From contig CAVQRZ010000023.1 of the NCBI GenBank assembly GCA_963715335.1, positions 64,001 to 128,000 on the forward strand: a stretch of 64,000 nucleotides of DNA. Reading direction: 5' to 3'. The notes under the pieces are model-generated. The model did not search any database, had not been told where the DNA came from, and was given only the letters and a program-made list of their open reading frames with translations. A program made the translations under genes and the position numbers. This DNA comes from an uncultured delta proteobacterium (GTDB taxonomy: Bacteria > Desulfobacterota > Desulfuromonadia > Desulfuromonadales > BM103). Shown piece after piece: positions 43,860 to 63,704 of the stretch; the stretch's first letter is position 1, and every line of letters starts with the position of its first letter.

Positions 43860-44993
43860 TTATTTGGTTTCCGCGTACCGCGTACCGCATTCCTCGTCCC
43901 GCGTCGCGGAGTTGCTGATCCAACCGCCACCAATCACCCGATCATCATCGTAAAACACCGCAGCCTGGCCTGGTGTCACACCGTTTTGCGGTTCGTCGAA
44001 ATCGACCCGCACCGTACCATCGTCCATGGCTGTGATCTTCGATGGAACCTCCTGATGACGATAGCGGATGCGACAGGCCGCCTCGAGTGTTCCGGTCGGA
44101 GGATCAATGAACCAGTTGACATCAGAAACAAGACATTGCGAAACACTGAGGTGCCGTTTTTCACCAACAATGACCTGGCGTTTGGCCGCATCGATACCAA
44201 CGACATAAAGCGGTTGCGGCCACGCGAGCCCCAGTCCGCGGCGCTGACCGATCGTGTATCGATATGTCCCCTGATGCCTGCCGAGGACCTGGCCATCGAT
44301 GTGGACGATCTCGCCGTTCATCGTCCCGGGGCCACGCTGTTCTTCAAGGAACCGGACGTAATTGCCATCGGGGACGAAACAGATGTCCTGACTCTCCGGT
44401 TTTTCAGCGACCTGCAAACCAAGTCGCACAGCGTGGTCGCGTACCTCATTCTTGGTCATGCCGCCGAGCGGGAAACGGACATACCGCATCTGTTCCCCGG
44501 TCAGCGTGAAGAGAAAATAAGTCTGGTCCTTGTTGCGGTCATGCCCTTTCCTGAGAACCATGCGACCATCTTCTTCGACCAGTTGGGCATAATGCCCGGT
44601 AACCAGGTAATCAGCCTGCAGCTCTCGAGCCCTGCGCAGCAATATCTCGAACTTGAGCAGCTGGTTGCAAAGCACACAAGGGTTGGGCGTACGACCGTTG
44701 AAGTAGTCATCACAGAAGCGGTCGATGACTGCCGCTTCAAACTGTTTTTCAAAATTGACGACATAAAAGGGTATGCCGAGAGACTCGGCCACCCGGCGGG
44801 CATCGTAGACATCGTCGAGAGAGCAGCAGGTGCCGAACTTTTCGCCGTGCTCCGCGGTAAAGCCGGAATAGTCCCAGATCTGCATGGTCATGCCGATCAC
44901 CTCACAGCCCTGCTCCTTGAGTAAAGCAGCAGCAACCGAGGAATCTACCCCGCCGCTCATGGCAACGACGACTCTTTTGCCTGGTTCAATCAT
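43860..44993 (-). CDS. mnmA: tRNA 2-thiouridine synthase
   Basis: SGGVDS, TPNPC, TGHY, KDQTYFL and PGQ motifs. Confidence 0.97.
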
Positions 44994-45048
44994 GTCAGAT
45001 CTGTACGAACACTCACGGGAATGATCAATAGGTAATATTCGTCCATAA

Positions 45049-45154
45049 GGAATTCAGAATACAGTATCCAGTATCAAGAAGAAAACCTAAAGTATAGGGT
45101 CTATAGGCTTCCGGCTTCTGGCTTCTGGCTTCTGGCTTCTGGATTCTGAATTCT
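45049..45154. repeat. Heptamer tandem array (GGCTTCT-like x7) with upstream complementary arm
   Basis: 45106-45154 holds seven 7-nt units; 45049-45081 holds AGAATAC/AGTATCC-like units. Confidence 0.85.
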
Positions 45155-45226
45155 CGGATACCCAACAAAGAAAGGGCATCCAAAAGATGCCCTCCTTTAC
45201 TTCAAGTCGATTCTTCGAAATGAGCT

Positions 45227-45595
45227 CTAACCATTCTGTTCTTTATAGTTTTTAATGGCCTCGTGCAAGGCATCTGCGGCCAGGTTCGAACAATGCATCT
45301 TCTGCGCCGGCAACCCGTCGAGGGCCTCAGCAACCGCCTGGTTACTGAGCTCAAGCGCCTCATCGATCGTCTTGCCAATCGCCATCTCCGTAACCATTGA
45401 AGATGTGGCAATGGCCGCGCCACAGCCAAAGGTCTTGAACTTCACATCTTGAATGACGTTGTTTTCGACCTTGAGAAAAATTTTCATGATGTCGCCGCAG
45501 GAGGCATTACCCACCTCGCCCACGCCGTTGGCATCTGTTATTTCACCCACATTGCGCGGGTTGGTAAAATGGTCCATTACTTTATCTGTGTACAT
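45227..45595 (-). CDS. iscU: Fe-S scaffold protein IscU/NifU-N
   Basis: NPRNVG, CGD, FGCG and MHCS motifs. Confidence 0.95.
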   Translation of the reverse strand: MYTDKVMDHFTNPRNVGEITDANGVGEVGNASCGDIMKIFLKVENNVIQDVKFKTFGCGAAIATSSMVTEMAIGKTIDEALELSNQAVAEALDGLPAQKMHCSNLAADALHEAIKNYKEQNG

Positions 45596-45710
45596 GTCGA
45601 CTCCTTAATATTCACTGAAGACTTTCAACAGTCTGCCTTTAAAAAACGAGAAGTGCGAAGTGCGAGGTGCGAAAGGTCTTTTCGGGCTTCGCGCCACTCG
45701 CCTCGCGTTC

Positions 45711-46940
45711 CTAAATTCTCCTCACCGTTTCACAGGTCTCGCACCCTTCCGGAGTTTTTCCACAGTTATACAGGGGGCTCATATCGCGGAGACGCTGCAC
45801 GGTAGCCGGCAAGACCTCCAGGACCTTGTTAATCTCTGCCTCTGTGGTTTCAGGGCCGAGACTGAAACGCGTACTCGAGTGTGCCAGGGTCACTTCGACG
45901 CACATAGCTCCCATGACATGGGATGGCTCCAGGGAACCGGAAGTGCATGCAGAACCTGACGACGCTGCAATGCCAAACATGTCGAGGTTGAGGAGCAGTG
46001 ACTCTCCCTCAATGTATGCGAAGCTGACATTCAGGGTGTTCGGCAGGCGCTTGTCACGATCAGGCGTTCCGTTCAGCTTGATGTCCGGGACCTGACTGAG
46101 GACGCCATCTTCCAGGCGGTCACGCAGTGTGCGGACACGGCGGGAACAGGTTTCGAGTTCGGCGGAAGCCAGTTCACAGGCCTTGCCCAGCCCCACGATA
46201 CCGGCAACATTCTGAGTTCCGGCACGCCGGTTGCGTTCCTGGTGGCCGCCATGGATCAGAGCGGACATCCGCGTGCCGCGTCGCACATAGATTGCGCCAA
46301 CCCCTTTTGGTGCGCCAATTTTGTGGCCAGAAATCACCAGCAGGTCGACATTGGCTTGCTGCACGTCAACCGGGATCTTGCCGACAGCCTGTACCGCATC
46401 GGTATGAAACCGGATGTTGTACTTCCTGGCGATTCGGCCGATCTCCTCGACCGGATAAATGTTGCCGGTCTCATTGTTGGCCCACATCACCGATATCAGT
46501 ATGGTTTTGTCAGTAATTGCAGCTTCCAGGTCAGCAAGATCGAGCATGCCGTCCTTGTCTACCGGCAGGTAGCTCACAGCATAGCCCTGCTTTTCGAGAT
46601 ACTGACAGGTTTCAAGGACTGCAGGATGTTCTATCGCTGTTGTAATGATATGGTTGCCTTTTTCTTTCAGGGCATCCAGCGTTCCCTTGATAGCCATGTT
46701 GTCACCCTCGCTGCCACAGGAGACAAAGACTATCTCGGCGGCCGAGGCGTTGATCAACGCGGCAACCTGCTCACGCGCCTTCTCCAGGGCACCGGAGACC
46801 TGCCGTCCCGCCCAGTGAACGCTGGAAGGGTTGCCGAACTGTTCGCGGTAAAAAGGCAACATCACCTCCAGGACCTCTGGCCTGACCGGTGATGTGGCGT
46901 TGTAATCTAGATAAATGTTGCCCAATTCCCTGTCCTCCAC
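45711..46940 (-). CDS. iscS: Cysteine desulfurase
   Basis: DYNATS, SGHK and SSGSACTS motifs. Confidence 0.96.
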   Translation of the reverse strand: MEDRELGNIYLDYNATSPVRPEVLEVMLPFYREQFGNPSSVHWAGRQVSGALEKAREQVAALINASAAEIVFVSCGSEGDNMAIKGTLDALKEKGNHIITTAIEHPAVLETCQYLEKQGYAVSYLPVDKDGMLDLADLEAAITDKTILISVMWANNETGNIYPVEEIGRIARKYNIRFHTDAVQAVGKIPVDVQQANVDLLVISGHKIGAPKGVGAIYVRRGTRMSALIHGGHQERNRRAGTQNVAGIVGLGKACELASAELETCSRRVRTLRDRLEDGVLSQVPDIKLNGTPDRDKRLPNTLNVSFAYIEGESLLLNLDMFGIAASSGSACTSGSLEPSHVMGAMCVEVTLAHSSTRFSLGPETTEAEINKVLEVLPATVQRLRDMSPLYNCGKTPEGCETCETVRRI

Positions 46941-46949
46941 TTACAAAAT

Positions 46950-47387
46950 TTAATGGCTACCTTTTGTTTCCTTGAACTTGCCCCTTGCTTCCTGGGTCAA
47001 CTCTTCGAGAGTGATCGAGGCAAGGAAGTCGCGGATCTTCTCACCCAACCCATGCCAGACATTATGTGTGACGCAATGGTCATCACAAACGCAACCGCGC
47101 TTCTGGTCCATGCAGGCGACCGGGACCAGAGATTCCTCGACACTGTCGATGATCTCATCGACCTGAATCTCCCGCGCAGGTCTGGCCAGGAGATATCCTC
47201 CTCCAGGACCGCGAACACTTTTTACGATCTTGCCGCGGCGTAATTTAACAAAAAGCTGTTCAAGGTAAGTCAATGAAATACTCTCTCGCAGAGAGATATC
47301 GCGCAGGGATACCGGTGAGCCTTCGGAATAAAGATTCAGATTTACCATGGCCCGCACGGCGTACTGTGCTTTGGTGGACATTCGCAT
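46950..47387 (-). CDS. iscR: Rrf2-family regulator, IscR-like
   Basis: SVRGPGGGY motif and C-terminal Cys/His cluster ligands; lies upstream of iscS-iscU. Confidence 0.9.
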   Translation of the reverse strand: MRMSTKAQYAVRAMVNLNLYSEGSPVSLRDISLRESISLTYLEQLFVKLRRGKIVKSVRGPGGGYLLARPAREIQVDEIIDSVEESLVPVACMDQKRGCVCDDHCVTHNVWHGLGEKIRDFLASITLEELTQEARGKFKETKGSH

Positions 47388-47389
47388 GT

Positions 47390-48187
47390 TTACGCCTCGG
47401 TTTTTTCCTTTTTACGAGAATCCGTCGGGCTCGCGACTGATTTTGCCGCAGCGCTCCTGGTCGACGCAGCGCGTTTGACGGTCTTTTTCACAGCAGGTTT
47501 TGCTTGCGTCTCTCCAAGGCGGGACGTCAGGTCTTCAACTTTCTTTTCCAGAGCTCTAATTTGATCAAACAGGCAGCTGATCGCCTTGGCTTCGGGGTCG
47601 GGCAGATTGCCATGTTCGAGGTCGGGGCGTTGTTCCTCATCGACAACCTTCTTTTCCTGCTGCATCACGACCCGACCGGGGATGCCAACCACCGTGGCAT
47701 TCTGCGGTACTTCCTTGACGACGACCGAATTGGAACCGATCTTGGCACCCTTGCCGACGGTGAACGGGCCGAGAACTTTCGAACCGGACCCGATCACGAC
47801 ATTATCCTCGACAGTCGGATGACGCTTGACCTTGTCCCAGGTCACGCCGCCGAGAGTTACGCCATGATAAATGGTAACATTATCACCGATTTCGGCTGTT
47901 TCGCCGATGACCACGCCCATGCCGTGATCGATAAAGAACTTCTTGCCGATCTTTGCCCCGGGATGGATCTCGATGCCGGTGAAAAAACGTCCCAGGTGAG
48001 AGGTTAACCGGCCAAGGAAGTAAAGCTCGTGGGTCCAGAGCCAGTGTGCGACGCGGTAAAACCAGACCGCGTGCAATCCTGGGTAACAGAAAATGATCTC
48101 CAGGACACCACGCGCCGCAGGATCACGGTCAAAAACTGAATAAATATCCTCGCGAATTTTATCGAACACTTGCAGTATCTCCTCCAC
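47390..48187 (-). CDS. cysE: Serine O-acetyltransferase
   Basis: DPAA, IEIHPGA, IDHG and KRHP motifs. Confidence 0.96.
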
Positions 48188-51818: not shown

Positions 51819-52470
51819 CAGATTGTTGACGAACCCTGCACGTGATGCGGGGTTCGTTTTTTTTTGCCTGTCAGGTGGAGTATTTATGAAGTTTAGGGCA
51901 ACAGATGGTTAATCTGTTGCCCTCGTTCTCTTATTTGAGATCCAAACACAAAAGTTGAAGAACAAAACCGTCGGGGTTGCCCGACAGCAACTTCATTTTC
52001 TTTGTAGCGACAAAGAAAGGAAGCAAAAGAAAGCTTGGCGCTACGCTGGGCATGTCTGGCTCGGCAGGGCGGCGACCTCAATGCAGAACGTTCTAAACGA
52101 TCAAGAGTCTACGCTTCACCCGCAGGAGCCGAGGCTCTTGAGAGCCTCTCCTGCTGTGGAGACTTGCGTTGATAGAGGTTGTTTTGGCTTTTCCCTGGTA
52201 GATCACACGGCAAGGTCAGGCCCTTTGACACAGGGCCGGATCACCATCACAGCGGGTTCTTGAAGTCACAGACATCCGGCAAAGGAGATGCCCTCCGCAA
52301 GGAGAAGGCACTTTTGCATACTTTTGTTGCCGGACAAAAGTATGGCGTCGGGCGGGACGCGACCCGCCGGTTTTGCTTTTAAGCTTTTCAAGAAAAGCAA
52401 AAAGGGCAACAGATTAACCATCTGCTGCCCTCTCTATCATGAATTCAGGTTAAACTTTTACAGCAGCCCC
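51819..52470. mobile_element. Composite repeat/MITE, copy C, at the fumarase terminator
   Basis: Begins CAGATTGTTGACGAA (like copy B) and ends TTTTACAGCAGCCCC. Palindromes at 51895-51923 and 52403-52431 enclose the inverted homologue of copy A. Confidence 0.8.
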
Positions 52471-52546: not shown

Positions 52547-54361
52547 CTATCGTCCCTGATAAAACCCGGCCTGGGCATTATAAAGACCGGCATAAGCACC
52601 AGCAAGCCGCAACAGCTCAGCGTGGGTTCCTTTCTCGATAATCATTCCATCATCCATCACATATATCCGATCAGCCAACTGCACTGAAGAAAGACGGTGG
52701 CTGATGATCAGCGCGCTACGTTGACCGATGACATTGCGAAACGAACGGATCATCTCAGCTTCAGCCAGAGGGTCGAGGGAACTGCTCGGTTCATCAAATA
52801 TCATCAGGTCAGCGCTACGGAACCAGGCCCTTGCGAGAGCGAGACGCTGCCACTCACCAATACTGAGCTCCTGACCGGCCTGAAAATGCGTGCCGAGCTG
52901 CGTATCAATGCCATCAGCAAACCGGTTTATGAACTGGTCCGCACCAGCAATTTTTGCCGCAGCAGTCAATTCATCAGCATTTGCTTCCTTCTCTGAATCT
53001 CCCAGCCATATGTTCTCGGAGATTGGCAGATCGAATTGTGCGAAATCCTGGCTCACAACACTCAAATGGCGACGCCATGACCTCGGCAAGAACAATTTCA
53101 GGTCCTTGCCTTCCCAGCTAACCTGTCCTTCATCAGGGTCGTAAAGCCGGCAAATTAATTTTGCCAGGGTTGTCTTTCCTGCTCCATTCACCCCAACCAA
53201 AGCGACTATCTCACCTGGACGTACTTCGAGATTCACATTCTTTAGAGTATGCTCCTTACGACTTGGATAAGTGAATGAGAGATCACGACAGACAAGCCCC
53301 AAGGCTGCCGGCTCCGGCACGAAACTTTGTCCGTTCTCCAGCTCAACCTTTACCGGTAGGTCAATCAAATCATAAAAATGTCTCAAGAACAGGTTGTCCT
53401 CATAGAGCCAACCCAGCCCCTGAAGAACATTCTGCAGAGCTGTCAAGGCTCTCTGATAACCTTGAAAATACATAACGATAACACCAAGAGTCATCGCCCC
53501 CTGGATCGCCACAAAAACCATCGCGGCCAGAGTTCCATATAGTGCGATTGTTGCACCGCCCTGCGCCAGGATGTCGCGCCTGACACGCCTTTTACTGATG
53601 TCGAGGCGCCCCTGACGCAACTTGTCACGCAAATCCCGGTAACGCCCACGGAATAAATCACCGATACCCAGCAGACGGATTTCACGAGCAAAATCAATAC
53701 TGGTCATCATCCAGTGGTAGAACCAGGCTTGCCGTTCGAGTTCAACCCGGTCTCGCTCAAAGGTATAGAGTTGGCGGGCATAGATAAGACGCACCAGCCC
53801 TGCAGGGACAGCGGCCAGAAGGAGAGCCAACCCAACGGCCCAATGAAAGGAGAACAACAGCCCGACGATACCAAAAAGTATCAGGAGGTTCTGCAGAGTC
53901 TGCTTCAACCCATTGACGATGTTGGCCGGACGTGACAAGGCGTCTTGTTGAGCAAGATGGAGGGTATTGTGATATGCAGGGTCTTCATAATAACCGAGAT
54001 CGACTGCAATTGACTTTTCGTGGATAAGGTCTGAGACAAAGTCAGAGACAGCCAGAGATTGTGCTTCCGTGACATATGCAGCGATACTGTTAATTGACGC
54101 AGTCGCCAACGCGACCAGGCCAGCAAGCCCGACCCAGATTAAAACTTGCGTTACCGCACCGTCACCTCTTTCAAGCAATGCGGCACCGAGAGAATCAACT
54201 ATCTGCTTCAGCAGCAACAACGCGAACACCGGCAAAGCCGTCTGTACTATCATCAACAACAGGCTTGCAAGAGTCCAGCGAGGGGTTGCTGCCCAAACCA
54301 GTCGCCAGGCACGGTGCAGATTGAAGATTCCTTTGATTCGCATTTTTATCGAACTATTCAT
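52547..54361 (-). CDS. ABC exporter (TMD + NBD) of the RiPP cassette
   Basis: TM helices; GVNGAGKTT, LSIGEWQR, FDEP and ISHR motifs; no C39 peptidase domain seen. Start uncertain. Confidence 0.92.
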   Translation of the reverse strand: MNSSIKMRIKGIFNLHRAWRLVWAATPRWTLASLLLMIVQTALPVFALLLLKQIVDSLGAALLERGDGAVTQVLIWVGLAGLVALATASINSIAAYVTEAQSLAVSDFVSDLIHEKSIAVDLGYYEDPAYHNTLHLAQQDALSRPANIVNGLKQTLQNLLILFGIVGLLFSFHWAVGLALLLAAVPAGLVRLIYARQLYTFERDRVELERQAWFYHWMMTSIDFAREIRLLGIGDLFRGRYRDLRDKLRQGRLDISKRRVRRDILAQGGATIALYGTLAAMVFVAIQGAMTLGVIVMYFQGYQRALTALQNVLQGLGWLYEDNLFLRHFYDLIDLPVKVELENGQSFVPEPAALGLVCRDLSFTYPSRKEHTLKNVNLEVRPGEIVALVGVNGAGKTTLAKLICRLYDPDEGQVSWEGKDLKLFLPRSWRRHLSVVSQDFAQFDLPISENIWLGDSEKEANADELTAAAKIAGADQFINRFADGIDTQLGTHFQAGQELSIGEWQRLALARAWFRSADLMIFDEPSSSLDPLAEAEMIRSFRNVIGQRSALIISHRLSSVQLADRIYVMDDGMIIEKGTHAELLRLAGAYAGLYNAQAGFYQGR

Positions 54362-54484
54362 AGATCCTATCCACATGGAGTCATTACATTTTTCACCAGA
54401 AACACATAAAAAAAATATGCATACTATAGCATTTAAATCATATATTTGTCGTAACAACCATATTCGACATATAATAGCTGCCTT

Positions 54485-55372
54485 ATGTCTGATCGTGACA
54501 AAATATACGGGCAAGAACTTGCTATTGGCCCCCTCATCTACCACCTCTATGCGATTGATGAATGGGGCGCAAGTATTCTTCATGGAATCAGCACACATCT
54601 TGCCTGTAATGAAATTTCGAGAACGGCTGATCGAATAATATTATTGTTTCATAATGAGCCGGCAGCCTTTACTTCGAAAAAAGTTCCCGCCGCTTTTTCA
54701 ACCTGTGAAGTTGAAGAAGATTCGTGGTATTTCCGCAAAAACCTGATTGACACGACCTGGCAATCGGATCAATCAACCTGCACCTTCTGGTCAGCAGGGG
54801 TTGACACGTTAATCGGGCCCGTTCGTTTTCATCTTCCATGGAGCCTTGTTGTTGATGATCTTGTTGCACGGGGGGGAGGACTGATCCACGCCGGGCTGGC
54901 CGACCACGGAGGCTCCGGATATCTGTTTGCTGCCCCGCCAAGCGGCGGTAAGAGCACAACATTGGCAACAGCCCCAGCCGAGTGGATGATTATGAGTGAT
55001 GACGCTGCTCTCGTCTGGCCAGACGAAAATGGCTGGCTGGCCAGTCCCCTGCCATCCTGGGGAGACCAACTCAAGCCTGACGAGCCCTGGCCCTGGCCAC
55101 AGATGGCGCTTGACTCGACTTGCGCTCTGAGCAACATTTTGCAGCTTGATAAAGGCGCCCATGTCGAACTCGCCAGGCTGAAAGAGTCAGCGGCCCTCCC
55201 CTTTATCTACCAGGCTTTAAGTGAGTATCCCGTCATTATTCTGGCAAACATCAGTTATAGAGAAGAATACTTCCGTAGCGCAGCGCAAATGGCCCGCGTT
55301 CTCTCAACATGGCAGCTTACCCTGCCGAAGCATGGCGACATCTGGCACCTGCTCCAGCAGAGAACCAAATGA
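54485..55372 (+). CDS. scmC: HPr-kinase-like P-loop protein, ScmC-like
   Basis: IHAG, AAPPSGGKST and SDD motifs; adjacent to ScmD/E/F-like genes. Confidence 0.72.
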   Translation: MSDRDKIYGQELAIGPLIYHLYAIDEWGASILHGISTHLACNEISRTADRIILLFHNEPAAFTSKKVPAAFSTCEVEEDSWYFRKNLIDTTWQSDQSTCTFWSAGVDTLIGPVRFHLPWSLVVDDLVARGGGLIHAGLADHGGSGYLFAAPPSGGKSTTLATAPAEWMIMSDDAALVWPDENGWLASPLPSWGDQLKPDEPWPWPQMALDSTCALSNILQLDKGAHVELARLKESAALPFIYQALSEYPVIILANISYREEYFRSAAQMARVLSTWQLTLPKHGDIWHLLQQRTK

Positions 55373-56010
55373 ACACACTAACCAACACCTTCATATACAA
55401 AGGCAGAAGCATGTGGCCATGTTTTCAGGAAGGCGACCTCCTGGTGCTGGCTGACATCGAATTCAACCAGATTCGTGCAGGCGATTGCATAGCGTACCAG
55501 AGGACCAGCGGCAGAAAAGCGGTGCACCGTGTAGTTGCGCTTCAAAGCTCACTTATCACACGCGGCGATTCTTTACCTTGCGTTGACACTGAATCGGTCA
55601 AATCGGAGCAGGTTATAGGGCGGGTTGTGAGTTTTTATCGCTTCGGCAGGCGGCATCAAGTTGTCGGAGGGTTCATAGGCAGGATTGTGGGTCTGTTCTA
55701 CCGATATGCAGGCCGTATCGATCCGCAAAGACAGGCGCGAGGCGGCTGGCTAGCGCGCAAAATCCGCTTTTTCAGCATGGCGATACTGAAAACAATTCAA
55801 TGTGATGGGAAAGCTGAGAGGCTTAAACTTGATGGGGCAGATGAATTGAAGGTGTGGACTATAGCCGGGAGGGTTATCGGACAACAGGATCAGGACTCAA
55901 GGCAATGGAAGATTGCCTGGCCATGGATGTTTTTGTTGAAATCAGGGAGACTTTTAAGATGGGGCAGAGGTCTTATTTTTCGCCGTTACCTACAGAACAG
56001 TAAACACTAG
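55369..56010 (+). CDS. S24/S26-family peptidase (Ser-His type)
   Basis: GRSMWP, GD, VHRV and TRGD motifs; ATGA-coupled to the upstream gene. Confidence 0.78.
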   Translation: MNTLTNTFIYKGRSMWPCFQEGDLLVLADIEFNQIRAGDCIAYQRTSGRKAVHRVVALQSSLITRGDSLPCVDTESVKSEQVIGRVVSFYRFGRRHQVVGGFIGRIVGLFYRYAGRIDPQRQARGGWLARKIRFFSMAILKTIQCDGKAERLKLDGADELKVWTIAGRVIGQQDQDSRQWKIAWPWMFLLKSGRLLRWGRGLIFRRYLQNSKH

Positions 56011-56179
56011 CTCCATTGCCACGCGTACAGTTACCCTGGTTTGACGCCCCTGACCCAGATGCGCATTGGGTTGGACCGCCAGGCGTGGGCGTAGTACCAG
56101 TCGCGCATTCACCGAAAATCGGCTGACATGAGTCAACAGACCTGACCATCGGCTCTTTCCATAAACGCTTATTACTCAT
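55973..56179 (-). CDS. Putative RiPP precursor peptide with CxxG repeats
   Basis: 68 aa with WKEP leader motif and four CxxG units; GAGGGG RBS; dedicated promoter. Confidence 0.82.
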   Translation of the reverse strand: MSNKRLWKEPMVRSVDSCQPIFGECATGTTPTPGGPTQCASGSGASNQGNCTRGNGASVYCSVGNGEK

Positions 56180-56209
56180 ACAACAGCCCCCTCAAAAATG
56201 ATTTCCGCG

Positions 56210-56238
56210 ATTATAGCCCTATCCGGGTATCTTGCCAA
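56210..56238 (-). promoter_or_regulatory. Sigma70 promoter for the precursor gene
   Basis: TTGGCA (56238-56233), 17-nt spacer, TATAAT (56215-56210). Confidence 0.75.
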
Positions 56239-56282: not shown

Positions 56283-57356
56283 TTAGCCTCTGCGCCTCTT
56301 TAACGGGAACAACCCTTGTTCAGCGGCTTGTTGACAGAACCAGTATGGTGCCAGCAGGTCACCGGAGAGCTGATAATTGGAGGCGACACAACTACCAAGG
56401 CAGTTTTCCTGCATCAAACAATCACGGCAAATCCCCTGAAGACTCTTCGGCAAGCCTTCCCTCAGGCCCATAAGCACCTGGTGGCTCTGCCAAATCTCCT
56501 TGAGCTTTACTGACATGACAGCACCCATCGACAGTTCCGGAACATGTTGACCAACACCACACAACGAGTAGGCCCCTGAGGGCAGGATGCCGAGCACGTG
56601 CATGATGTTACAGACCCCGTCATCCTCCCCGGAGATTATGCGTGAGAGAGGTCGGAAAGCATGTGGAACGCCCATTTGAATGGGGAGGCTGAACTGCTGT
56701 GACCACTTCTCAGAAACTTTTGCAGATATATCCAGGATCTCCTTGATACTCAAGGCATCTCCTTCATTAGAGAGGGTCTCAGCTCTCAGGACCGGTTGCA
56801 GCACGTTCAGTTTGACTGCGCCAGCGCCCAACCCCTCAGCCAGGGCAAAAAAATCAGGCAGTTGTCTTTTGTTCGATTGTTGCAAGGTCAAAATCAATTC
56901 AGGACGGAAACCCGCGCCAACCAATGCGCGAATCCCCATAATGGTTTTTTTAAAACCACTTTTGACGCAGCGAATCGCATCGTGGGTCCTGTCATTTGCT
57001 CCATCCAGGCTCACGGACACCCTGCTCACTCCGCTGTCCCGCATCAAGCTTGCCAGTTCATCATTAACCAACATACCGTTAGTCTCGACAATCGCCTCTA
57101 GATTGTATTCTCTCTGCAAATCAAGAAGCTCACGGAAACACGGATGCAGTGTCGGTTCCCCGCCAGTCCACTTGATGGCAGAAAGACCCAACGGGAGAGC
57201 CTGTTCGATGGCATGCCTCAATATTCGCGGCTCAAGGACAACTTGCTCATCCTGCTTTTGACGTTCCGGCACGAACCAGCAATGCCGACAAGCACAGTTA
57301 CAACCACTGGTCAGGTAAGCATAGAAGGTATTCAATGTCGGCACAGTCACGGCCAT
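56283..57356 (-). CDS. scmF: Radical SAM/SPASM protein, ScmF-like
   Basis: YLTSGCNCACRHCW, TGGEP and C-terminal CxxCxxxxxCxxxC motifs. Confidence 0.85.
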   Translation of the reverse strand: MAVTVPTLNTFYAYLTSGCNCACRHCWFVPERQKQDEQVVLEPRILRHAIEQALPLGLSAIKWTGGEPTLHPCFRELLDLQREYNLEAIVETNGMLVNDELASLMRDSGVSRVSVSLDGANDRTHDAIRCVKSGFKKTIMGIRALVGAGFRPELILTLQQSNKRQLPDFFALAEGLGAGAVKLNVLQPVLRAETLSNEGDALSIKEILDISAKVSEKWSQQFSLPIQMGVPHAFRPLSRIISGEDDGVCNIMHVLGILPSGAYSLCGVGQHVPELSMGAVMSVKLKEIWQSHQVLMGLREGLPKSLQGICRDCLMQENCLGSCVASNYQLSGDLLAPYWFCQQAAEQGLFPLKRRRG

Positions 57357-58456
57357 AACGATAGCCCCTCTGCTGCAAGTTTCTCCTGAAATCGTTTGAG
57401 ACAGGTCGACGGGCATGGCTGGTCAACTTTCCCGGTCGCTGTAAACGCCGTACCGGGACAGTTCCCGGTACAACTTGACTGCCATTCACACAGACGACAT
57501 TCGTCAAACTCTTCAAGCGCAATTTCCCACCGTTCACGCAACCGGCATAATGACTCGGCATTCTGCCAGACCTCAACCAGTGGAGTCTCTCCGACCTTGC
57601 CGAGGACCATGTGCGGCAGCATGACACAGGGGATATAAGCACCATCTGAACGAACCGCAAGGCTGTCGTAAATACAGCCACAACCGACCAGACGTCCCCG
57701 ACCCGGCACAGGAGTCCCAGACCGTCGTGCCTCCTCCATTTCACTGAACATACGCCAGTCCGCCAGAGGCCCTGCATTTGCGCGAATCCGCCCCGGATAT
57801 TGTTTGTCAAGGTTCGCCATGATTTTTATCGCTTTTAAATGCTCTCTGGTGTTAAGCAAAACACCCGTGCCGTATTTTGTCGAAGTCCCGAGCGAGGAAG
57901 CGGCATTGGTACTGAAAGAAGGGAGCCTCAGTTCTGTCAGCAATAGTCGTGCGATTTTCGGAAGGTCATCTATATTGCCGGGATGGATGGTCACTCTGAC
58001 TGTTACTGGCAGTTTGGTACTCTGCAAAGCTCTGATTCCTGATAACGCCGGCTCAAATGTTCCCTTACCGCGAAGACTTTCATGAATTTCTGCTGTCGAG
58101 CCATCCAGTGACACCTGGACCATGTCACACCGGCCTGTCTGCTGCAGGTGAACAGCAATTTGCGAGGTCAGGAAACTGCCGTTGGTCAACACGGAAAAAC
58201 GCATGCGATTGGCAACAATCCCGTCAACCAAGTCTAAAAAATCATCCCTGATCAACGGTTCACCACCCTGCAGGGTTACATTCATCACCTGGCAGTTTGC
58301 CAGTTCCTCGAAAAAGGTTAACCAGAATTCAGTAGGCAGGTCGGCGTAGATTACATCAGGGTTGTTAAGATAGTAACAATAGCTGCAGTTCGCGTTGCAG
58401 CGGCTGGTAATTTCAAGATCCAGAGAGCGTGGAGTACGCATCACTTGCGGAGACAT
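57347..58456 (-). CDS. scmE: Radical SAM/SPASM protein, ScmE-like
   Basis: MRTPRSLDLEITSRCNANCSYC, GGEP, GCGC and CRLCEWQSSCTGNCP motifs. Confidence 0.87.
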   Translation of the reverse strand: MSPQVMRTPRSLDLEITSRCNANCSYCYYLNNPDVIYADLPTEFWLTFFEELANCQVMNVTLQGGEPLIRDDFLDLVDGIVANRMRFSVLTNGSFLTSQIAVHLQQTGRCDMVQVSLDGSTAEIHESLRGKGTFEPALSGIRALQSTKLPVTVRVTIHPGNIDDLPKIARLLLTELRLPSFSTNAASSLGTSTKYGTGVLLNTREHLKAIKIMANLDKQYPGRIRANAGPLADWRMFSEMEEARRSGTPVPGRGRLVGCGCIYDSLAVRSDGAYIPCVMLPHMVLGKVGETPLVEVWQNAESLCRLRERWEIALEEFDECRLCEWQSSCTGNCPGTAFTATGKVDQPCPSTCLKRFQEKLAAEGLSLWP

Positions 58457-58761
58457 TAATCCTGCTCCCAAACCCCTACAGCACCGAGGATTGCTAATGT
58501 CTCCATTAAACCAATGACCTGCTGGGCCGTCGAGTCATCAATGCCCTCGTATCTGTTCCTTAGGCAATCAACAACTTCACCCAGGCTACGTTTTCCATCC
58601 AGCAACTTCCATACGTCAACCGCCGTGCTGTTGAGCATCTGCACCTTTCCATTATCAGGGTCAAACAACAGCGCGCAATCATCGTCTTCGATGCGCAGAA
58701 CGAGACCTGGATTGACCGCCAGGCGACTGTCCATATCGATTTTCAATTCGTTGTTATCCAA
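58456..58761 (-). CDS. scmD: PqqD-family RRE protein, ScmD-like
   Basis: NPGLVLRIEDDDCALLFDPD...LNSTAVDVWKLLDG; TAATG-coupled to the ScmE-like gene. Confidence 0.85.
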   Translation of the reverse strand: MDNNELKIDMDSRLAVNPGLVLRIEDDDCALLFDPDNGKVQMLNSTAVDVWKLLDGKRSLGEVVDCLRNRYEGIDDSTAQQVIGLMETLAILGAVGVWEQD

Positions 58762-58782: not shown

Positions 58783-59070
58783 CTATTCTATTGGCAGCTT
58801 TACAACGAGACCGTGACGTAGAGCGAAACCAAGGATGGATCGAGTCTGTCGTTCAGCATCAGCCCGGTTGAGGTCAAAGTTCTGCAACAGGAAATTCAAA
58901 CAATCACTACGGTTAAAAAATCGTCCTTCAGGCAGCAACGACGCCTGCTCGAAGAGCGCCGCGGCAGCGTGATTGACAGTAACCATCACATCCCGATTAG
59001 CAATCAGCATAACTGCATCCTCGTCAAAAAATTCAATGAAAACATGAGGAGAGAGTTGGTAGCAATCCAC
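58783..59070 (-). CDS. Second, divergent PqqD-like protein
   Basis: 95 aa with LSPHVFIEFFDEDAVML...VNHAA...GLV pattern typical of the PqqD fold. Confidence 0.65.
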   Translation of the reverse strand: MDCYQLSPHVFIEFFDEDAVMLIANRDVMVTVNHAAAALFEQASLLPEGRFFNRSDCLNFLLQNFDLNRADAERQTRSILGFALRHGLVVKLPIE

Positions 59071-59169
59071 CAGGCGTACACCTTTCGAATATGATCCTTC
59101 ATGTTAGTTGTTTTACAAGTGGACTGTCAAATAAACGGAGGGATGAAATCATTCACCGCCAGAGAATGA

Positions 59170-60270: not shown

Positions 60271-61063
60271 TCAGCCTTCGTCCTGGAGGCCTTCGATAAG
60301 CGCCTTGACTTCGGCGCAGATATCCTTCGATGCCTGGCTCTTCTCATGTTTGAGAAATTCCCTGAAACAGTGCAGAGACTCCTGAATCTGCTCCTGGTCC
60401 AGGTAGATATTTCCCAGCGTCAGGTAAGCAAAGGAGAAATCCGGATCGAGGGCTATGGCCTTGCGGCAGTATTTTTCTGCCTCGGCCAGATGCATCATTC
60501 TCATAGTGGAACTCGGCCAGGTTGAAATGGCCCTGCGGATCTTCAGGTTCGAGCTCGATGGCCTTCTCAAAACAATCGCGAGCTTCATCCGCACGTCCGG
60601 TCGCGAAACAGACATCGCCAAGTGAATAGAGGGCAAAAGCCGACTCCGGGTCCTGTTCGAGAGCCTGTCGATAGCACTCCTCGGCCTTGTCCATGCGCTC
60701 CTGATGAAAGTGGATCAGGCCGAGACTGACTCGGGCGTCGATTTGACCCGGGTCACGTAACAGAACATCCTCGTAGACCCGGCATGCTTCTTCAGGACGT
60801 CCCAGTTCAAAATAAACATCGCCCAGGTCAAATTGCAGATCATATTCTCCAGGAAGTTCTCCAACGACTTTCTCAAGCACTCTGGCCGCCTCTTCAAGAT
60901 GACCCGCCTCGACCAGGGCTTCCCCCAGGAAGGCACGGGTTTCGACGTCGTCCCCCTGCTCCTGCAAAAGCCTTTTGAGGATCCGTACGGCCTCTTCCGC
61001 CGCACCTTTTTCAAGCGCCTGCTCCGCCCTGCTTATGGAAATTTGTCCTTCATTCATCTGCAT
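60271..61063 (-). pseudogene. TPR-repeat protein interrupted by a single-base frameshift (possible assembly error)
   Basis: TPR repeats in ORF 60344-61105 continue in frame 60271-60636 after about 60493. Confidence 0.7.
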
Positions 61064-62387
61064 TCTCCTCGTATTCTGTGTTAAGAACCGGCGCAAACTC
61101 TTCATTCAAGGTGTCAAGCATGTCCCACACTCCCCATGGCTCAGCCGGAATGACTTCAACCTCGACCTGCAGGTGGTCGGCAAGGTCGCGAATGGACACA
61201 TCGTCCAGGAACACATCTTCAGCTTCACGCAGCATGACATCCGGAACCAGCAGTATCTGGCCGAGTTCTGCATTGGCCAACTGCTCAAGCAGATCCTGGC
61301 CGGTCAGAAGTCCGGCCACGGTAACATCCCCGGCAAAGAAGCGATTCTCAACCGTATGCACCCGCAGGTCAGTACCGCATTTTTCGTTCAGTAAATCAGC
61401 AAACCAGCGGAGTTCCCCGGCAGCGGACACCCCGGTCACCAGGCTGACCGGCGGCAGCTTGAGCGGTTGCGCCTCTTTGATCACTGCCTCGGCCTGCATA
61501 CGAAACATCGGGACCAGGCCGACGCCATTCTCAATCTGGGACAGTTCTTCGTAGGACTCCAGGGGAGGAAAATCCTTTGCCGCCCTGAGATAGAGTTCGT
61601 CAGCGGCGAACATAAATCGTGTGCCGAGCGTTTCCAGCAACTCGGACTGTTTCTCCCCTATCCAATCTGCCAGTTCCAGAGCTTCGCCCCTGGTGTGGAT
61701 CCTCAATTCTGGAAGACGCTGCCGGTGCCCGGTCAATCCGACCGGGACAATCGCCAGAGATTTGACTCCGGGAGCAAGGCAGGACAGTTCTTTCAAGGTC
61801 TGCTCCAGGTGAACACCATCGTTAATTCCGGGACAGACAACGACCTGGGTGTGCAACTCTATGCCTCCATTGACCAGGGTCCTGATTATCGGCATGACAT
61901 CCGGTGCAGGTTTGCCAAGCAGTTTTTGCCGCAGCGTGTTATCGACGGCATGCACTGAGATGTAGAGTGGCGAGAGCTGCTTACGCAAAATCAGCTTCAG
62001 GTCATCCTCAGTCAGGTTGGTCAGGGTGATATAGGCCCCGTAAAGATAGGAAAACCGGTAGTCTTCGTCCTTGATGTACAGGGTACGCCGCATGCCCTGC
62101 GGCAGTTGGTGGACGAAACAGAAGATACAGTTGTTCCCGCACTGTTTCGGTTCCGGATGCGGCAACAAGATGCCGAGCGGCTCCTCGCTGTCGTGCTCGA
62201 TGTCGAGTTCCCAGATTTCACCATCGACGCGTTCAACTTCGATCCACAGCTTTTCGCGAGGTTCTTCGATCAGGTAATCAACCAGGTCATTGACCTGTTC
62301 GCCGTTCAAGCGAACCAGACGGTCACCGGGCTGCAACCCCAATTCATCGGCAATACTGCCGGGCTCTATGGCAAGGATTTCAAGCAT
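61050..62387 (-). CDS. PDZ + DUF512 Fe-S (radical SAM-like) protein
   Basis: N-terminal PDZ-like domain; CGNNCIFCF, KDEDYR and ENGVG motifs. Confidence 0.88.
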   Translation of the reverse strand: MLEILAIEPGSIADELGLQPGDRLVRLNGEQVNDLVDYLIEEPREKLWIEVERVDGEIWELDIEHDSEEPLGILLPHPEPKQCGNNCIFCFVHQLPQGMRRTLYIKDEDYRFSYLYGAYITLTNLTEDDLKLILRKQLSPLYISVHAVDNTLRQKLLGKPAPDVMPIIRTLVNGGIELHTQVVVCPGINDGVHLEQTLKELSCLAPGVKSLAIVPVGLTGHRQRLPELRIHTRGEALELADWIGEKQSELLETLGTRFMFAADELYLRAAKDFPPLESYEELSQIENGVGLVPMFRMQAEAVIKEAQPLKLPPVSLVTGVSAAGELRWFADLLNEKCGTDLRVHTVENRFFAGDVTVAGLLTGQDLLEQLANAELGQILLVPDVMLREAEDVFLDDVSIRDLADHLQVEVEVIPAEPWGVWDMLDTLNEEFAPVLNTEYEENADE

Positions 62388-62515
62388 AATGCAACCTGGG
62401 CAGCGATCTACCGCCTAAGACTTAAATCTTAGCCCTCAACAAAAACAAAGGCCCCAAGCCGGTATTTCCGGCAAGGGACCTTTGGCGCATACAGTTCGAC
62501 AATTCAGGGCGAAAA

Positions 62516-62749
62516 TCAGTCCCTGCCGCCATGCAGGCGGAAGCTGCCGTCGGCTGATGTAATTGACGTGATTGCATGTTTGTAAAGCAGCAGATCACCG
62601 TTACTGTCAACCAGCACGCAGAAGCTGTCAAACGATTTGACGTAGCCTTGCATTTTCTCGCCGGACATCATGGCGATGTCGACGAGGACTCTCTCTTTGC
62701 GAGCCTGGTTAAGATATTGATCCTGAATATTGAAGGGGGACTTAGCCAT
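62516..62749 (-). CDS. hfq: RNA chaperone Hfq
   Basis: NIQDQYLN, SFD and YKHAI motifs; follows miaA. Confidence 0.93.
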   Translation of the reverse strand: MAKSPFNIQDQYLNQARKERVLVDIAMMSGEKMQGYVKSFDSFCVLVDSNGDLLLYKHAITSITSADGSFRLHGGRD

Positions 62750-62765
62750 AACAACCACTCCTTTT

Positions 62766-63704
62766 CTAAATGACATGGAAATTTTCAATCAACTTCTGGA
62801 TTGTAGCAAAGTCACTAAATGATTCAAGCCAAATTATTGATTTATCTTTACGAAACCAGGTTATCTGTTGTTTTGCGTAACGCCGTGTCGAGCGTTTCAG
62901 GTCTTCTACAGCTTCTTCATGAGACATTTCGCCGCGCAGCAACGCAAAGGCCTGCCGATAACCGATGGTTTTGAAGATTTTCAGACCAGGATCATATCCG
63001 CTCTGCAGAATCTGCTCAGCCTCTCCAAGCAGGCCCTGCTGGAACATCGCCTCGGACCGCCGGTCGATCCGTTCATAAAGGGCTTTCCGCTCACAGGCCA
63101 GGCCAATCTTCAGGACACGGTAACGCTCGGTCTTGAATCCGTGCTCATCCTGCAACTCGGAGAGGGGGCGGCCGGACTGGCGAAAAACTTCCAGGGCACG
63201 AACGATTCTGATCAGGTCGTTGGGATGCAAACGGGCCGCTGATTCCGGGTCAATCTCTGCGAGCTCTGCATGCAGGGGCGCACTGCCCTCCCGTTTTGCC
63301 CGGTCATGTAAATGCTTGCGCAGGTCCGGATTGGCGCCCGGGGCATCGAGCAGACCTTCCGTCAATGCCTTGATATAGAGACCGGTTCCGCCAACCAGAA
63401 AAGGCCGTTTGTTGCGCTGGCAGATGTCCTGCATGGCTGCCTCGGCAAGGGTGATAAACCGCGCGGCATGGAACTCCTCGTTGGGCCAAACCACGTCAAT
63501 CAGGTGATGCCGAACCCGCAGCTTTTCCTCTGGCGTCGGCTTGGCTGTGCCGATATCCAACAGGCGATAAACCTGGCGGGAGTCCGCGGAGATGATCTCA
63601 CCACCGAAGACCTCGGCAAGCGCCAGGGCCAGCTCCGTCTTGCCAGCTGCAGTCGGGCCGCAGATGACCGTCAGAGGGGAACGCATGTCTGTCGTATCCG
63701 GCAC
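62766..63704 (-). CDS. miaA: tRNA dimethylallyltransferase
   Basis: GPTAAGKT, DSRQVY, GGTGLY and YAKQQ motifs. Confidence 0.97.
   Translation of the reverse strand: MPDTTDMRSPLTVICGPTAAGKTELALALAEVFGGEIISADSRQVYRLLDIGTAKPTPEEKLRVRHHLIDVVWPNEEFHAARFITLAEAAMQDICQRNKRPFLVGGTGLYIKALTEGLLDAPGANPDLRKHLHDRAKREGSAPLHAELAEIDPESAARLHPNDLIRIVRALEVFRQSGRPLSELQDEHGFKTERYRVLKIGLACERKALYERIDRRSEAMFQQGLLGEAEQILQSGYDPGLKIFKTIGYRQAFALLRGEMSHEEAVEDLKRSTRRYAKQQITWFRKDKSIIWLESFSDFATIQKLIENFHVI

Follow-up and report, generated by a model that had tools for sequence, protein, structure and literature searches.

Which peptide do the two radical SAM/SPASM enzymes encoded in the window (the whole 64,000-nucleotide stretch of uncultured delta proteobacterium DNA analysed here) act upon, and what might they do to it? 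The genes concerned are as follows:

52547..54598 (start probably near 54361), minus strand: MsbA-like ABC exporter, from family matches, with homology from about residue 80
54485..55372, plus strand: ScmC-like HprK-type kinase with a P-loop and DD motif (TIGR04249 67.5, cut-off 125; TIGR04352 E 1e-4)
55309..56010 (start probably 55369), plus strand: archaeal/SipW-type S26 peptidase (TIGR02228 52.9 bits, cut-off 51.85)
55973..56179, minus strand: precursor peptide gene of divergent ScmA type, 68 aa, with an ATG start, from homologues and purifying selection
56283..57416 (start probably 57356), minus strand: ScmF-like radical SAM/SPASM enzyme (TIGR04251 382 bits, cut-off 400)
57347..58471 (start probably 58456), minus strand: ScmE radical SAM/SPASM enzyme (TIGR04250 447.2 bits, cut-off 400)
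58456..58761, minus strand: ScmD-like discrete RRE of the PqqD family (PF05402 48.8 bits, cut-off 23.4; TIGR04248 64.5, cut-off 100)
58783..59070, minus strand: second, divergent RRE-like protein (matches a profile of the ScmD alignment with 87% probability, E 4e-6)

The locus is a divergent SynChlorMet (SCM) cassette, a system reportedly described by Haft and Basu in 2011, and its gene set is the same as that covered by NCBIfam TIGR04248-TIGR04252 (ScmD, ScmC, ScmE, ScmF, and ScmA). ScmE scores above the cut-off of its model; ScmF, ScmD, and ScmC score below theirs, yet in each case that model is the best match. The precursor ORF lies directly after ScmF, with ScmF, ScmE, the RRE, and the second RRE as its own-strand neighbours on the 5' side and the kinase and peptidase genes convergent with it. 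Its assignment to an ScmE/ScmF cassette in the initial annotation is borne out by this position and by the ScmE score. What sets the clade of the window apart from SCM is the WxxP leader, the additional RRE, and the convergent kinase-peptidase unit. The second RRE-like gene matches no family, although weak PqqD matches are seen in 6 of 11 homologues, and BLAST finds its homologues in 10 loci, all in the near clade. The S26 peptidase has intact Ser and His motifs, which were checked across 27 homologues, and no obvious membrane anchor. Literature searches, in which most subscription journals were not covered, found no experiment, product, or reaction for any SCM enzyme.

As the name of the TIGR04252 model implies, ScmA is a short Cys-rich ORF encoded with ScmC/D/E/F. 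The ORF directly after ScmF in the window is likewise short, Cys-rich, and encoded with these four genes. It gives no match to TIGR04252 at E values up to 10 (cut-off 35 bits) and is therefore classed as ScmA-like rather than as a member of ScmA. The same model matches 14 of 40 family peptides, below the cut-off wherever scores are shown, and 32 of the best 150 database hits, all below 35 bits (best 32.8); above the cut-off, it matches in none of 401 genomes. The curated ScmA model thus misses nearly the whole family. The parts of the peptide gene are these:

56111..56179, minus strand: predicted leader, residues 1-23, with a basic N-terminus, W7-x-x-P10, and I-F-G at its end
56161-56150, minus strand: W7-x-x-P10 RRE motif within the leader, from the sequence motif
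55976..56110, minus strand: predicted 45-aa core with four CxxG units, from CxxG conservation in family peptides and Cys/Gly positions kept in L081-L083
56107-56096, 56065-56054, 56029-56018, and 55999-55988, minus strand: the CxxG units of the core, from the sequence motif

The ORF of 68 codons stands where the initial annotation had placed it, and every one of its four core cysteines (Cys25, 39, 51, and 61) is followed by Gly at +3; a fifth, Cys18, is located in the leader. The repeats had been described as CxxG(x)G. CxxG is present in all four, and the second Gly, at +5, in repeats 2-4 but not in repeat 1. Leader residues K4, W7, P10, and G23 are invariant across 9 close peptides, and the gene is single copy in its own genome. 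Comparison with the three closest metagenome loci (L081-L083) gives a crude pN/pS of 0.22-0.33, with all eight Cys/Gly positions of the CxxG units kept. On these ratios the ORF is under purifying selection, and it is almost certainly a real precursor gene. None of the Pfam and NCBIfam family models matches the peptide, and a protein atlas returns unnamed hypothetical clusters only (0.92-0.93). AlphaFold2 models it as unstructured, with a mean pLDDT of 54 and no fold; a 265-aa long form of the family likewise gives pLDDT 51 and no fold.

The 38-nt overlap with the 3' end of the peptidase gene that had been read from the window is present in its sequence but is not conserved in relatives. The distance between the peptide and peptidase genes is -4 to +21 nt in one set of close relatives and -11 to +27 nt in another, and a conserved gene overlap was rejected on this variation. 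Aligned with L081-L083, the window lacks one base in a short run of T at 55927-55934 (+), just after the conserved W-P-W of the peptidase, and the tail found in relatives is encoded in the adjacent frame. The peptidase tail is thus frame-slipped in the window, which accounts for the overlap with the peptide ORF; the one-base gap may be a mutation or an assembly error.

Expression signals were located upstream of the peptide and of the enzyme genes:

56187..56193, minus strand: ribosome binding site GAGGGGG, 7 nt 5' of the ATG
56210..56238, minus strand: dedicated sigma-70-type promoter TTGGCA-17-TATAAT, from consensus match and conservation, with a predicted start near 56203
59101..59130, minus strand: promoter-like site TTGACA-18-TAACAT heading the RRE-RRE-ScmE-ScmF unit, from consensus match only

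The ribosome binding site (GAGGGGG at 56193-56187) is as first described. The peptide promoter matches 11 of 12 consensus positions and is the best of nine promoter-like sites in 12 kb, a number no higher than in shuffles (7.7 +/- 3.0); the whole 3.3 Mb genome holds only 64 sites of at least 11/12. In 10 of 11 close upstream regions, the start is preceded at 27-42 nt by the pattern TTGNNN-17-TANNNT, with a diverging spacer (300 shuffles: mean 0.14, maximum 2). The second tandem peptide in L034 lacks a separate promoter and is not part of this count. The hexamers of L081-L083 are identical to those of the window and lie 29 nt from the start. Among seven metagenome loci tested beyond the 11 close regions, the strict pattern is found at the expected distance in three and missed in four. 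Looser matches (9-10 of 12) occur in L086, L091, L092, L095, and L150, and the match is 8 of 12 or lower in L087, L089/L090, L147, and L148. Four relatives leave a gap of only 28-45 nt after ScmF, which places the -35 box within the ScmF 3' end. The separate promoter proposed for the peptide is thus conserved in both position and spacing. By its conservation it is well supported for the near clade, and it is very probably functional. A promoter of this kind would allow precursor supply to exceed enzyme supply. Overlapping divergent promoter-like sites (10 and 9 of 12) are also seen at 54423-54475, between the ABC gene and ScmC, so the cassette would comprise at least three transcription units in addition to the peptide promoter.

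A protein search returns two homologues of the precursor (79% and 71% identity). A homologue follows ScmF in six of seven close loci and is on another contig in the seventh genome. A pattern search of ORFs for [YWF]xxP plus at least three CxxG detects such peptides at 32 of the 47 distinct SCM loci; L041/L042 (not SCM) and the duplicates L051 and L071 were left out of these counts and of those given below for the repeat register and the active sites. Several of the 15 SCM loci without a peptide are contigs ending near ScmF. The pattern gives 39 distinct matches in 688 kb of SCM loci and none in 83 kb from 15 other radical SAM loci, and its five matches in the 3.3 Mb own genome are the window ORF and four unrelated frames. 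A Gly-blind pattern was too noisy, with 65 matches in the own genome. As the initial annotation had predicted, ORFs of this kind stand beside homologous cassettes, in 32 of the 47 loci, and these peptides, together with the invariant W7-x-x-P10, agree with the proposal that the ORF is a RiPP precursor with an RRE-type leader.

Distribution of the SCM cassette is patchy: of 41 related genomes, 5 have an ScmE above the cut-off, and of 401 genomes from across the phylum, 34 have ScmF at E <= 1e-70. In this 401-genome sample the peptide is present in 30 of 34 genomes with a full ScmF and in 7 of 367 without. Because 24 of the 34 ScmF genomes supplied training sequences for the peptide profile, the fair comparison is with the remaining 10, of which 7 have the peptide; related genomes and peptides are not independent. 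The seven genomes with a peptide match and no full ScmF comprise three with a truncated ScmF, three that are 62-88% complete, and one whose match lies inside a 1071-aa frame; no clear case of a peptide without ScmF was found among the 401. A wider profile search matches 1568 database clusters at E <= 0.001, some of them false, with at least four unrelated repeat proteins among the best 150. Precursor genes were also observed on contigs other than the ScmF contig (G008 C25, G285 C7, G165 C85, and G227 C1).

The residue at which the repeats are most constant lies three positions after each Cys. Gly occupies Cys+3 for 200 of 203 core Cys in 40 family peptides, and for 80 of 83 beyond the three CxxG demanded by selection, the latter being the only partly independent count in sets chosen with CxxG patterns or profiles. 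Cys+4 is mixed (Ser 20%, Gly 19%, Asn 17%, and Thr 13%), with Asp/Glu in 3 of 201. The best 138 short database matches, obtained with a profile that itself favours CxxG, have Gly at +3 in 771 of 786 and Asp/Glu at +4 in 23 of 785; twelve of the best 150, which included four unrelated repeat proteins, had been dropped for exceeding 160 aa. The PapB acceptor is Asp or Glu, which none of the four +4 positions of the window peptide carries. The PapB-like register from Cys to residue i+4 suggested in the initial annotation is thus not supported, the +4 position being variable beside a near-constant Gly at +3. CxxGxG was rejected as the family motif, with Gly at +5 in only 19% of the 40 peptides' repeats and 9% of those in the database matches. 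Cys+6 is Ala or Pro in 73% (40 peptides), and Cys spacing is 10 or 11 in 122 of 163 intervals, with spacers of 6 to 17. Peptides in the loci carry 3 to 9 repeats and the long forms 16-21; the repeat number is odd in 94 of 174 peptides, which argues against obligatory disulfide pairing.

The first core Cys lies 17-21 residues past the aromatic residue of [YW]xxP in 38 of 40 peptides. An A-x-[AG] motif occurs at most nine residues before it in 124 of 174 peptides (shuffles 29.6 +/- 4.5), and motifs of this type are the pattern read by signal peptidase I. The counterpart in the window peptide is I-F-G at residues 21-23, from which we infer that the leader is cut after Gly23, with a cut after Phe22 as the alternative.

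ScmF has seven SPASM Cys that are invariant in 47 of 47 sequences, and ScmE also has seven invariant ones. According to the available text of PMC8326336, an auxiliary cluster of the thioether-forming enzymes SkfB and CteB is bound by three Cys and keeps one site open, the state that a count of seven Cys would leave, and the clusters of SuiB, PqqE, and anSME are fully ligated, with PqqE filling one by Asp; seven Cys are therefore no proof of an open site. An ScmE with a fully ligated first cluster was rejected as a general feature, since it would apply to some members only (Cys266 in 15 of 40). Six active-site positions were located by the sequence landmarks given in the accessible part of PMC10288494. 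In ScmF they read W-T-E-S-G-I/V, in 42, 44, 47, 47, 47, and 46 of 47 sequences, and in ScmE they split into subtypes. Two different chemistries per repeat from the two radical SAM enzymes, as the initial annotation had offered, would be compatible with this split in ScmE. One invariant pocket alongside one invariant motif makes ScmF the likely CxxG enzyme and, on sequence, the best candidate for that reaction. The pocket is a poor match to both StsB (Y-T-I-S-K-L) and CteB (F-F-T-S-H-Q), sharing exactly 2 of 6 positions with StsB, and since it is close to neither, room is left for another chemistry. The solved sequences nearest to ScmF, those of BlsE, SkfB, and PqqE, reach E values of only 1e-13 to 1e-11. 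In L047, L077, and L056, ScmF occurs with an RRE or peptide and no ScmE match in the stretches, which were chosen by ScmF and lie on short contigs; this fits ScmF as the core enzyme.

The predicted complex of ScmD with the leader gives weak support to binding, scoring 0.51 against 0.02 for the best control, with runs sharing at least 93% of contacts and a partner pLDDT of 56-58. That mark is reached by 116 of 157 solved pairs and 2 of 215 mismatched pairs, of which 18 solved pairs and both mismatches score at most 0.60, and because RRE-leader complexes have already been solved, the ScmD-leader score may reflect likeness to them. A natural protein, P0139, in which a PqqD domain is fused to a leader and 20 CxxG, supports the link between RRE and precursor. 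We take it as likely that the RRE binds the precursor leader.

The gene, its linkage, and the conservation of its motif and promoter are computed results; the chemistry that follows we infer at every step. The best model, which we advance tentatively and rate as slightly short of probable, is that ScmF forms alpha-thioethers from Cys to the Gly at i+3. The discrete RRE would bind the W-x-x-P leader, and ScmF, with a three-Cys first auxiliary cluster, would bind the thiol of a core Cys and take the alpha hydrogen from the Gly that lies three residues downstream. Gly has only an alpha carbon to offer a thioether, so a Cys-Gly link must be alpha. The result would be a four-residue Cys-Gly alpha-thioether (sactionine) ring, formed up to four times with a loss of 2 Da each. 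ScmE and the HprK-like kinase, the former probably aided by the second RRE, would then add clade-specific decorations, most likely at core Ser/Thr/Asn. The soluble S26 peptidase, by analogy probably the leader peptidase, would remove the leader after Gly23, and the ABC exporter would release a 45-residue beads-on-a-string peptide. There is precedent for the parts of the ScmF step: StsB makes Cys-Gly sactionines (available text of PMC10288494), and four-residue rings occur in streptosactin (PMC13361665, accessible part) and in CrpA (PMC13692751, accessible part). Gly at +3 could also be a requirement for a turn rather than the acceptor.

A turn at Gly would suit a ranthionine, in which the Cys sulfur is joined to a side-chain carbon of Ser, Thr, or Asn at i+2 or i+4, a reading that includes the i+4 model. 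Ser, Thr, or Asn stands at +4 in 104 of 201 repeats and Ser or Thr at +2 in 69 of 203, all four +4 residues of the window peptide are Thr, Ser, or Asn and are kept in L081-L083, and the available part of PMC8326336 describes beta/gamma thioethers formed with Asn, Thr, and Asp. We consider it improbable, however, given that about half of the repeats have none of the three at +4 (Gly alone makes up 19%), that Asp/Glu is so rare there (3/201 and 23/785), and that an invariant ScmF pocket better suits an invariant acceptor. Still a little less credit goes to thioethers between repeats, from Cys to the Gly of a neighbouring unit, nested or laddered into 10-14-residue rings or an StsA-like hairpin. 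The Cys-Gly links of StsA are hairpin-like (PMC10288494, accessible text) and the regular Cys spacing would fit such a ladder, but repeat numbers of 3-9 and 16-21 and spacers of 6-17 suit a local motif that is read repeatedly.

Departing further from the Cys-to-Gly(i+3) model, CxxG may undergo a non-thioether reaction (Gly-radical chemistry or Cys oxidation), or the kinase may be primary and the Cys left free as metal or disulfide ligands. The dissimilarity of ScmF to either tested thioether enzyme and the distance of its nearest solved relatives favour this reading, as does the placing of the first core Cys 17-21 residues past the [YW]xxP aromatic, where LPP has its phosphorylated Ser. We nevertheless regard it as unlikely: no clear genome with the peptide and without ScmF exists among the 401, and RODEO scored homologues as sacti/ranthipeptide precursors in the available part of the PMC10288494 supplement. 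That the ORF is no substrate at all, being a chance frame or an accessory Cys-rich protein, would agree with its 38-nt overlap with the peptidase frame and with its failure to match any family model, TIGR04252 included. It is highly improbable in view of the low pN/pS, the conserved position, leader, and promoter, the RRE-precursor fusion found in nature, and the unstructured model of the peptide.

Among known systems, the sactipeptides StsA/BlaA, streptosactin, and CrpA/CrpC and the PapB ranthipeptides resemble the window in using SPASM enzymes and RREs on Cys-rich cores, as far as the accessible sources describe them, and StsA is a hairpin (PMC10288494, available text). The window enzymes score far below the StsB model (73-91 bits, cut-off 625) and the PapB model (85, cut-off 340). 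The processing genes find a closer likeness in LPP (Popov et al. 2026), which, in the accessible text of PMC13381572, shares with the window a discrete RRE, a kinase resembling HprK, a SipW-like signal peptidase I, an MsbA-like exporter, and a [Y/W]xxP leader. There, the SipW-like peptidase and discrete RRE remove the YxxP leader, and phosphorylation of the core falls to the HprK kinase. Since LppK takes no residue but Ser and the LppS cut follows F-E-T, the kinase target and cut site proposed here are extrapolations. The systems also differ, within the available part of that source: LPP is a Bacillota family with one Ser modified and no radical SAM enzyme mentioned, and it has an NTP transferase, which is absent from the eight window cassette genes scanned. 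The window leader differs after WxxP from the LPP precursor motif YxxPxVLxHQxIxFETxxS. The comparison nonetheless ties the SCM cassette to a newly described processing route.

The precursor itself is not newly discovered, since the ScmA model is catalogued and a 45%-identical homologue was already predicted as a precursor (PMC10288494, accessible part). In the available supplement of Precord et al. 2023 (PMC10288494), the 'Updated Precursor Set' has a row, PLX72414/PLX72413, whose letters are those of the L035 peptide, and contains at least five other YxxP/WxxP plus CxxG rows with paired radical SAM enzymes; all are listed as 'Other Uncharacterized, Singleton', with no family grouping, register, promoter, cleavage site, or experiment given there. 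The L035 peptide is 45-48% identical to that of the window. Judging by accession prefixes, three similar peptides in that supplement presumably come from the founding organisms of the SCM cassette. New here are the conserved promoter, the i+3 register, and the likely cleavage motif.

A bolder generalisation, which we hold to be doubtful, is that CxxG precursors make up a large RiPP class still without a name, in which an LPP-type kinase/peptidase chassis is combined with two SPASM enzymes, with the invariant W-T-E-S-G-I pocket of ScmF installing an undescribed linkage at every CxxG. Such peptides, of 3 to about 20 units and including protein-sized, RRE-fused, or surface-sorted forms, would amount to a modular cross-linked polymer of anaerobes. 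If the Cys-to-Gly(i+3) model is true, ScmF would be an enzyme that reads repeats and closes small Cys-Gly rings, and its natural substrates would number in the hundreds. The window locus offers a compact test case, with one precursor copy, four repeats, and the full enzyme set, for which the predictions are four -2 Da events with Gly28/42/54/64 as acceptors, a cut after Gly23, a transcript that starts near 56203, and a core role for ScmF.

The family includes unusual architectures. P0021 is a precursor with an added FlgD-Ig/T9SS-like tail, and four long forms with 16-21 repeats are found among P0004, P0011, P0033, and P0069. Two to four precursor genes with differing cores are seen in L034 (12270-12700), L028, L067, L068, L070, and L096, which suggests tolerant enzymes.

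The cassette of the window is flanked by what we take, naming genes by eye, to be a cysE-iscR-iscS-iscU-mnmA run and miaA-hfq (43860-48187 and 61050-63704, both minus strand), and an unrelated DUF512 radical SAM gene is among the flanking genes. Just past the end of the ABC gene, at the cassette border, the same hairpin of about 30 nt occurs twice in opposite orientation, 500 nt apart, at 51895-51923 (+) and 52398-52436 (-); the pair possibly marks the ends of a small element or represents paired terminators.
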